A DNA stretch of 64,000 nucleotides from NCBI GenBank assembly GCA_048771875.1, contig CM109709.1, positions 44,324,541 through 44,388,540 of the forward strand, in the 5' to 3' direction. The notes beneath the pieces were generated by a model. It had not been told where the DNA came from, searched no databases, and saw only the letters and a list, made by a program, of their open reading frames with translations. Below, piece after piece: positions 16,598-17,488 of the stretch (positions are counted from its first letter, which is position 1; every line of letters begins with the position of its first letter). Made by a program: the position numbers and the translations under genes. This DNA is from Ctenodactylus gundi (Eukaryota).

Positions 16598-17488
16598 GGC
16601 GGAAGCCGAGGTCCCCTCTGTCCGGCGCCGGGCCACGGACTCCGGAGAGCGGAGAACGTAAGCTAGCTCTGCACCACAGCAGACCACGCCGAAGAACAGA
16701 CCGCCGGCGGCGAACTCCAGCGAGCGAACGCCGAGACGACAGCGCCGCGGCTCTCAAGGACCCCGCAAGGACCTGTCTTTCTATCTGCCGGCCACACGGA
16801 ACCAGCTTCTGCGCCTCACGATCCTATCCATTCCCCGCCCGCCACCGGGGGTTCGGCCCAGCCTTCTCTTCCCTTTTTGCACAGCGTTACGTCTTTAGGT
16901 CACAAAGGCAGAACGAGAAGCGAACCCGGCACGACAACAAACAGCCTGAAAATGGAGCGCGGGGCCCTTCAGTCTCTAAAGTTAAAAAGGGAAGGGCCTT
17001 AATGTCACGTGGTAACAGATACACCAATCACCGGCACGACTCCGCCCCGTCGCCAGTCACGTGACTAGACCAGGGACCCACGTGGGAGTACAGCGTGCTT
17101 CATTCTTTTGTGCTGGGTTGGCGAGTCCGCGCCGGGAGCTGAGCAGGTCAGATGCAGGGGTGTTGCTCTGCTCCGTGTGGAGGCCTCCCGGGTAGTCTGA
17201 CGGGCAGGCTTGAGTCGGAACTTTTTAAATAGGCCTCTAGTTGGCCAGAGGTGACTTCAGGATCCTGCGAAATGATTTAATGTGGGCCAGGGGCCGAAGG
17301 GCCTGTGATCCACAGAGGCGGGGATTCTGAGAAAACTGGTCTGAAAGGCGGGACTTGGTCAGGGGACGACGGAGGGAGGAGTCTTAGCCTTATCTGCTTT
17401 TATGATCTCTGCGTCTGTAGGCAACTTGGTAAAAATACTTGTTTGGTGGGCGACGTGGTACAGGTGCCGAAGGGCGTTTGTTACAGGA
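16598..17488. promoter_or_regulatory. Bidirectional CpG-island promoter shared head-to-head by OSGEP (-) and APEX1 (+). It includes a presumed non-coding APEX1 exon 1 around 17.09-17.17 kb.
   Basis: ~890 bp separate the two start codons, and the segment is CpG/GC-rich with no TATA. Motifs: three CACGTG E-boxes (~17006, ~17058, ~17079), the middle one inside a 12-bp palindrome AGTCACGTGACT (CLEAR/USF-type); CCAAT at ~17024; Sp1-like GC box CCGCCCC at ~17042. An acceptor ttacag sits 2 nt before the APEX1 ATG. Confidence 0.75.

Follow-up and report, generated by a model that had tools for sequence, protein, structure and literature searches.

Between the divergent genes OSGEP, which serves tRNA modification, and APEX1, which serves DNA repair, the gundi (Ctenodactylus gundi) has three CACGTG E-boxes, a CCAAT box and a GC box, and in this rodent they very probably represent the core, characterised before, of the bidirectional promoter that the two genes share. 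The presence of the motifs, the non-random way in which they cluster, the orthology of the locus and the graded conservation of its elements were read directly from the 64,000-nucleotide stretch of gundi DNA analysed here (the window) and from its alignment with other mammals. The feature is real and mostly conserved but ordinary, in that the promoter is one already known.

The sequence-only reading that drew attention to the region had assigned it to the head-to-head promoter of OSGEP and APEX1 and had described the cluster as midway between the two start codons, and both statements proved correct. The start codons are 891 bp apart in head-to-head orientation and the cluster, 79 bp from 17006 to 17084, straddles the ATG-to-ATG midpoint at 17043. 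Direct reading placed the starts of the three CACGTG sites at 17006, 17058 and 17079, that of CCAAT at 17024 and that of CCGCCCC at 17042, exactly where they had been reported. The four coding exons of APEX1 splice to a complete protein of 318 amino acids which is an exact match to KAM5235018.1 (APEX1, Ctenodactylus gundi), and the gene order OSGEP(-)/APEX1(+)/TMEM55B(-) is found in all 10 of the other mammalian loci that were compared. Coordinates of the genes and promoter elements are collected in Table 1.

Table 1 Features of the OSGEP/APEX1 shared promoter and adjoining coding exons in the gundi window
Feature	Position	Strand	Basis or remark
OSGEP start codon	16595..16597	-	tblastn with OSGEP N-terminus and direct reading; first coding exon runs leftwards
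APEX1 first coding exon	17489..17546	+	ATG at 17489; tblastn and splicing
Remaining APEX1 CDS exons	17748-17935, 18779-18971, 19251-19768	+	tblastn and splicing
CpG island across the shared promoter	16301..17500	.	GC 0.58; has 3 of the 17 CACGTG sites of the window
Block GGCAC..(A/C)AAACAGCC, OSGEP side of cluster	16928..16947	.	conserved across the alignment
E-box 1, GTCACGTGG	17006..17011	.	orthologous to the human -147/-142 'USF' site beside the footprinted Sp1 site
CCAAT box, ACCAATCAC	17024..17028	+	presumed NF-Y site
GC box CCGCCCC, Sp1-type	17042..17048	-	lineage-specific
E-box 2, 12-bp perfect palindrome AGTCACGTGACT	17055..17066	.	contains GTCACGTGAC, CLEAR/USF-type consensus
E-box 3, CCCACGTGGG	17077..17086	.	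MYC/MAX-type flanks; most conserved element of the promoter
Candidate APEX1 initiator region, pyrimidine-rich conserved block CATTCTTT(G)TGC	17099..17112	+	predicted
Position aligned with human '+1' of the APE1 promoter numbering	17144..17148	+	predicted; mapped via orangutan and the PMC2275136 oligo

The intergenic part of the shared promoter is GC-rich (GC 0.59, CpG o/e 0.88). The window has three further CpG islands, of which two are without CACGTG and the third, that of PIP4P1/TMEM55B, has it twice. The palindrome of E-box 2 occurs once in the window, with its inner GTCACGTGAC at 17056-17065. In order to assess how readily such a cluster would arise by chance we shuffled the 891-bp intergenic region 20,000 times with its dinucleotide composition preserved. 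The shuffled sequences contained on average 0.20 CACGTG sites, with a probability of 0.001 for three or more, and in none of the 20,000 did three fall within 79 bp; the corresponding figure for the 1.2-kb CpG island was 5e-5. As local shuffles rarely or never give such clustering, chance is excluded as its source.

Seki et al. 2002 dissected the OSGEP/APEX bidirectional promoter of human and Ikeda et al. 2002 that of mouse, and a survey of bidirectional promoters cites both studies for validated CCAAT and Sp1 sites (PMC3121118). The CCAAT box is described as crucial to OSGEP transcription (PMC3121118 Table 3, PMC3418287), and on the OSGEP side it is the only element for which these sources give a demonstrated contribution. 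Expression of both APEX1 and OSGEP is broad, as in genes of the housekeeping type (PMC3418287). On the APEX1 side the human APE1 basal promoter reaches from the start site 143 bp upstream, with -143 to -118 needed for basal activity; an Sp1 footprint lies at -169/-148, and the interval -184/-143 has 'putative' Sp1 and USF sites (PMC2275136). The published EMSA oligo for -177/-143, AGAGAGGGAGGCGAGGCTAAGCGTCTCCGTCACGT, which ends in GTCACGT (PMC2275136), matches the orangutan sequence and was used to anchor the human numbering. Transferred in this way, the approximate human positions are -147/-142 for E-box 1, -128 for CCAAT, -86 for E-box 2 and -65 for E-box 3, so mapped that the human basal promoter interval (-143 to +1) holds CCAAT together with E-boxes 2 and 3. 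On this alignment the 90-bp gundi cluster corresponds to the human basal promoter plus the adjoining USF site.

The likeness to the human promoter (Seki et al. 2002, Gene 285:101; Harrison et al. 1995; Zaky et al. 2008, PMC2275136) extends to the head-to-head gene pair, the CpG island, the CCAAT box and the 'USF' site, which is gundi E-box 1. The two differ at the Sp1 site footprinted in human, GGGAGGCGAGG (-169/-148), of which gundi has a degenerate version (AAAAAGGGAAGGGCC), and in that gundi alone of the pair has CCGCCCC between CCAAT and E-box 2, where it also carries a deletion of 9-15 bp. In the orangutan, our great-ape proxy, E-box 2 reads ACCACGTGACC and is not the full palindrome. With the mouse Osgep/Apex1 promoter (Ikeda et al. 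2002, BBRC 296:785; Fung et al. 2001) gundi shares the CCAAT box, E-box 2 (mouse AATCACGTGACC), E-box 3 (CCCACGTGGG) and the spacing of 21 bp between these two boxes. The mouse differs in having CACGAG in place of E-box 1, an additional box, CCACGTGG, joined directly to an Sp1 site, GGGGCGGAG, and an OSGEP ATG about 190 bp from E-box 3 as against 480 bp in gundi.

Conservation was counted across gundi and ten other mammals (11 species, nine of them placentals), whose orthologous loci were found through relatives of the APEX1 protein: rhinoceros, a phyllostomid bat, orangutan, gerbil, mouse, a bovid, dugong and armadillo, the marsupial dunnart and the monotreme echidna. The expectation that the motifs would be conserved in mammals was borne out for E-box 3 and CCAAT and mostly for E-boxes 1 and 2, but failed for the full palindrome and the GC box, each present in two of the 11 species. 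The core of E-box 3, CCCACGTGG (17077-17085), is invariant in all 11 species, marsupial and monotreme included, and no other invariant run in the intergenic alignment of about 900 bp exceeds 2 nt; in all nine placentals the E-box 3 core extends to CCCACGTGGG. CCAAT is kept in 10 of the 11 mammals, the bat having CTAAT. E-box 1 is CACGTG in six of nine placentals (gundi, orangutan, bat, bovid, dugong and armadillo), reads CATGTG in the rhinoceros and is missing from mouse, gerbil and dunnart.

E-box 2 keeps its CACGTG core in 8/11 species; the bovid has CATGTG, and armadillo and dunnart are without the box. The longer core TCACGTGA is found in five of the 11, and gundi and gerbil alone have the full GTCACGTGAC here. 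With flanks, E-box 2 reads GATCACGTGACC in bat and dugong, GATCATGTGACC in the bovid, AATCACGTGACC in mouse, GAACACGTGACC in the rhinoceros, GACCACGTGACC in orangutan, GGTCACGTGACC in gerbil and AGTCACGTGACT in gundi. The most parsimonious ancestral placental form would be GATCACGTGACC, of which the gundi palindrome appears to be a lineage-specific refinement. The distance from the start of E-box 2 to that of E-box 3 is exactly 21 bp in every one of the eight placentals that keep E-box 2. In gundi the 9-15-bp deletion noted above lies between CCAAT and E-box 2, and in mouse, gerbil and dugong an extra CCACGTG box stands in the same interval. Placental cores thereby hold two to four E-boxes, the muroid rodents being without E-box 1 and having the CCACGTG as a fourth box. 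Such a stable number accompanied by turnover is typical of a homotypic cluster selected for multiplicity, in which E-box 3 is the one anchor and is absolutely constrained. Since E-box 2 is gone in armadillo and dunnart and E-box 1 in the muroids, neither is individually indispensable.

The GC box had initially been described as an Sp1 site. A GGGCGG/CCGCCC core is present at 17042-17048, but CCGCCCC is shared with the bovid alone, most other species having CCGCCAC(G) there, and in human the Sp1 footprint falls at a different place, upstream of E-box 1.

Conserved blocks also lie outside the cluster. On its APEX1 side the candidate initiator block reads (C/T)TCTTTGTG in nine of 11 species and TTCTTTGTG in seven, with TTGTTTGTG in armadillo and TTCTTTTGTG, one base different, in gundi. 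A donor-like CAG/GTCAG adjoins the position aligned with human '+1', its AGGTCAG being kept in most species, and would mark the end of a non-coding exon 1. Start-site positions in gundi are predicted from this alignment, and by them the E-box cluster is far closer to the APEX1 start region than to the OSGEP ATG, which is about 410-490 bp off. On the OSGEP side, the block at 16928..16947 has GG and AC runs that are invariant in the 11 species, with GGCA and AAC runs in the nine placentals.

As a separate observation, this OSGEP-side block has the form of a forkhead-like ATAAACA in most placentals. Orthologues present as host contamination were also sought in metagenome contigs with the pattern CCCACGTGGG-N(10-20)-TTCTTTGTG, which returned 46 loci; none aligned to the promoter by blastn and all were therefore taken as chance microbial matches.

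Binding data from human and mouse bear on which factors use the boxes. The suggestion that a MYC axis co-regulates the gene pair had in fact been documented by Myc ChIP (PMC2080907, PMC2258436 Table S1). In one Myc ChIP study (PMC2080907) the mouse Apex1 promoter is "a positive E-box control", and the primers used there map to positions 3562-3769 of our mouse locus (L056:3562-3769), bracketing CCAAT and all of the mouse E-boxes. For human, Kim et al. 2008 list APEX1 and OSGEP, each with CACGTG, among the targets found by Myc ChIP in serum-stimulated fibroblasts and HeLa (PMC2258436 Table S1), and APEX1 is also in the Myc set of Fernandez et al. 2003 (PMC2258436). In a CRISPR screen of MYC E-boxes (PMC10620128) APEX1 and OSGEP are absent from the text, and the gene-level APEX1 row of the supplement has no significant effect. 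For USF, the USF2 ChIP-seq motif is GTCACGTG (PMC11436898), a core that is found in both E-box 1 (GTCACGTGG) and E-box 2 (GTCACGTGAC). The statement that USF regulation of the APE1 promoter is established was however too strong, the literature examined having a 'putative' USF site only (PMC2275136).

E-box 3 has the features of a MYC/MAX site, being a canonical CACGTG in a CpG-island promoter and without a 5' T flank. C or G flanks of an E-box are favoured by MYC-MAX and disfavoured by MiT/TFE factors.

Taken with the human and mouse literature, these data are consistent with a TATA-less, CpG-island promoter in which NF-Y on the CCAAT box would support basal transcription in both directions, assisted by dimers of ubiquitous bHLH-leucine-zipper factors on class-B E-boxes that form a homotypic cluster, and in which Sp1-type factors would act on GC-rich sites whose positions change from lineage to lineage. 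E-boxes 1 and 2 (GTCACGTG) would fit USF1/2 and could also take MiT/TFE members, for example MITF where it is expressed. E-box 3 (CCCACGTGGG), which the alignment puts some 20-65 bp before the start region of APEX1, would fit MYC-MAX and its MXD/MNT antagonists, and MYC-MAX bound there may couple both genes to growth and proliferation. The 21-bp spacing, two helical turns, would set two dimers on one face of the helix and is compatible with cooperative or tetrameric binding. We infer the assignment of factors to boxes from flank preferences and partly from general knowledge. The evidence for activity of the promoter, its dependence on CCAAT, binding of Sp1, occupancy by Myc and regulation by MITF comes from papers on human and mouse.

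A different reading of the same boxes takes the E-box 2 palindrome, and perhaps E-box 1, as a genuine CLEAR element through which TFEB/TFE3 induce APEX1 and OSGEP under starvation or lysosomal stress. We regard this as rather unlikely. The palindrome had been put forward as a full CLEAR site, and this holds for gundi itself, where GTCACGTGAC (17056-17065) agrees with the consensus at 10/10 positions and lies about 80 bp upstream of the predicted position of human +1, but the match is lineage-specific. The T/A-flanked consensus is not conserved: 2/11 species have the full 10-mer and 5/11 have TCACGTGA, and 3/11 have either no core or an altered one. The probable ancestral form GATCACGTGACC does retain the T/A-flanked core TCACGTGA, as seen in bat, dugong and mouse. 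The invariant E-box 3, on the other hand, has C/G flanks of the kind that MiT/TFE factors disfavour.

The neighbourhood of the promoter offers this reading some encouragement. The next gene, TMEM55B/PIP4P1, lies about 6.5 kb away and is a validated TFEB/TFE3 target (PMC5691037); the rhinoceros 10-mer AACACGTGAC at E-box 2 is identical to a sequence that PMC5691037 describes as a CLEAR site of the human TMEM55B promoter, and the TMEM55B motifs recur in the gundi window, with GTCACGTGCA at 23747-23738(-) and GTCATGTGAT 39 nt from it. The APEX1 promoter resembles such CLEAR elements (e.g. TMEM55B/PIP4P1, PMC5691037) in its 10/10 GTCACGTGAC, promoter-proximal position, CpG island and clustered E-boxes, and differs from them in that the gundi consensus is unconserved, the best-kept box has non-CLEAR flanks and neither APEX1 nor OSGEP is lysosomal in function. 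Motifs of the GTCACGTG type are in addition those of USF2, and at sites of this kind TFEB meets competition from USF2 and MYC (PMC11436898).

For the MiT/TFE axis more widely, which had been proposed together with MYC, the picture is divided. MITF, a member of the family, is given as a transcriptional regulator of APE-1/Ref-1 in the passages of PMC2928201, PMC11401838 and PMC9181002 that cite Liu et al. 2009, but our full-text literature searches returned no report of TFEB/TFE3 at APEX1 or OSGEP, only gene lists and an interaction between the APEX1 and TFEB proteins. Both the MYC and the MiT suggestions are largely in the literature already. The MITF-responsive APE-1/Ref-1 promoter is alike in having a MiT/TFE member act on the APE1 promoter, presumably by way of the CACGTG boxes described here, and is different in its context, which is the melanocyte lineage and not a lysosomal stress response. 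In the 2009 work of Liu, Fu and Meyskens (J Invest Dermatol 129:422), MITF reportedly acts via E-boxes of the APE-1/Ref-1 promoter. Direct activation of APEX1, and perhaps of OSGEP, by TFEB/TFE3 via E-boxes 1 and 2, with E-box 2 perfected in gundi and gerbil, seems to us unlikely. APEX1 protein binds and stabilises TFEB (PMC12396377), so that a feedback loop is conceivable. Were such activation true, this stabilisation would close a positive feedback loop, and APEX1-OSGEP together with the adjacent PIP4P1/TMEM55B would form a small co-regulated stress-response domain; a link to lysosomal stress signalling becomes interesting only if TFEB/TFE3 are shown to use the T/A-flanked boxes.

Other readers of CACGTG might instead dominate, among them BHLHE40/41, CLOCK-BMAL1, MNT/MXD-MAX, MLX and HIF (through ACGTG), which would place the pair under circadian, hypoxic or repressive control. 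All of these factors recognise CACGTG or ACGTG as a matter of general knowledge, and E-box 2 carries TCACGTGA, the preferred site of BHLHE40/41, in five of the 11 species. The spacing of 21 bp between E-boxes 2 and 3, on the same helix face, suits factors that form tetramers, and PMC10570711 describes tetramerisation of USF. The published occupancy at the locus nevertheless concerns MYC and Sp1, with none found for these other factors, and the broad, housekeeping-type expression of APEX1 and OSGEP (PMC3418287) also argues against it, so that we consider their dominance distinctly unlikely. That the motifs are a by-product of CpG-rich sequence with no regulatory role, as might be supposed from the CpG within CACGTG, which makes it commoner in CpG islands, and from the unconserved GC box and outer palindrome bases, has a negligible probability given the shuffles described above, and is effectively refuted by conservation, CCCACGTGG being invariant over ~180 million years of mammalian divergence between flanks that are ~59% identical, and by the functional and ChIP data published for the orthologous human and mouse region.

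Our analysis re-identifies, in another rodent, the promoter core that was dissected more than 20 years ago in human and mouse and is in routine use as a control for Myc ChIP. Across the mammals compared only CCCACGTGG appears to be under absolute constraint, accompanied by CCAAT and by the 21-bp spacing to E-box 2, while the USF/MiT-type boxes and Sp1 sites turn over. The value of this grading is modest and comparative, and it may serve as a guide for promoter mutagenesis as to which element of the OSGEP/APEX1 promoter to target first.

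The neighbouring PIP4P1/TMEM55B promoter contains three sites on the minus strand (23583-23747), all of which are enclosed by a CpG island spanning 22901-23900. GTCACGTGCA is an exact match to the published human CLEAR (TFEB/TFE3 consensus) motif at -193 (PMC5691037), and GTCATGTGAT is located 39 nt from it, the same distance as between the human -193 and -154 motifs. Given this identity and the matching spacing, the validated TFEB/TFE3 target architecture seems, as judged from sequence, to be conserved in the gundi PIP4P1/TMEM55B promoter.

Candidate sites in the gundi PIP4P1/TMEM55B promoter
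Site	Position	Strand	Source
GTCACGTGCA	23747-23738	minus	window sequence
GTCATGTGAT	23708-23699	minus	window sequence
GTCACGTGAG	23592-23583	minus	window sequence

The whole window holds 17 CACGTG sites, where dinucleotide shuffles predict 4.3, and 12 of the 17 are located in CpG-poor sequence outside CpG islands. This excess may reflect sites in repeats or be a product of the shuffle model.

Several further features were observed in the OSGEP/APEX1 promoter. E-box 3, the CACGTG invariant in the mammals compared, lies only ~190 bp from the OSGEP ATG in mouse (locus L056, 3510-3700) and gerbil (locus L005), whereas this distance is 450-565 bp in gundi (16598-17077) and all other examined mammals, and therefore ~300 bp of OSGEP 5' sequence was either lost in muroid rodents or gained in the others. 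On the OSGEP side, ~60-80 bp from E-box 1, a conserved block GGCAC..(A/C)AAACAGCC (16928-16947), which in most placentals includes GATAAACAGCC with a forkhead-like ATAAACA core, may serve, close to OSGEP, as a factor site or as a start region. Immediately after E-box 3 is a pyrimidine-rich CATTCTTT(G)TGC (17099-17112); (C/T)TCTTTGTG is conserved in 9 of 11 mammals and the gundi block differs by one base. This block looks like a TCT/polypyrimidine initiator, and APEX1 may have a start site here, upstream of the published human +1.

Between the CCAAT box and E-box 2 a fourth E-box, CCACGTG, is present in mouse (L056 ~3650-3670), where it is fused to GGGGCGGAG, and in gerbil and dugong (locus L007). 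Since gundi carries CCGCCCCG at this position (17042-17054) together with a 9-15-bp deletion, its GC box appears to derive from CCGCCACG by a single-base change. The echidna core (locus L009, ~3505-3640) has four CACGTG boxes within ~130 bp, one of them within a full GTCACGTGAC that precedes the invariant box by 127 bp on its upstream side. The perfect 10-mer has therefore arisen repeatedly in this promoter, and not always at the same position.
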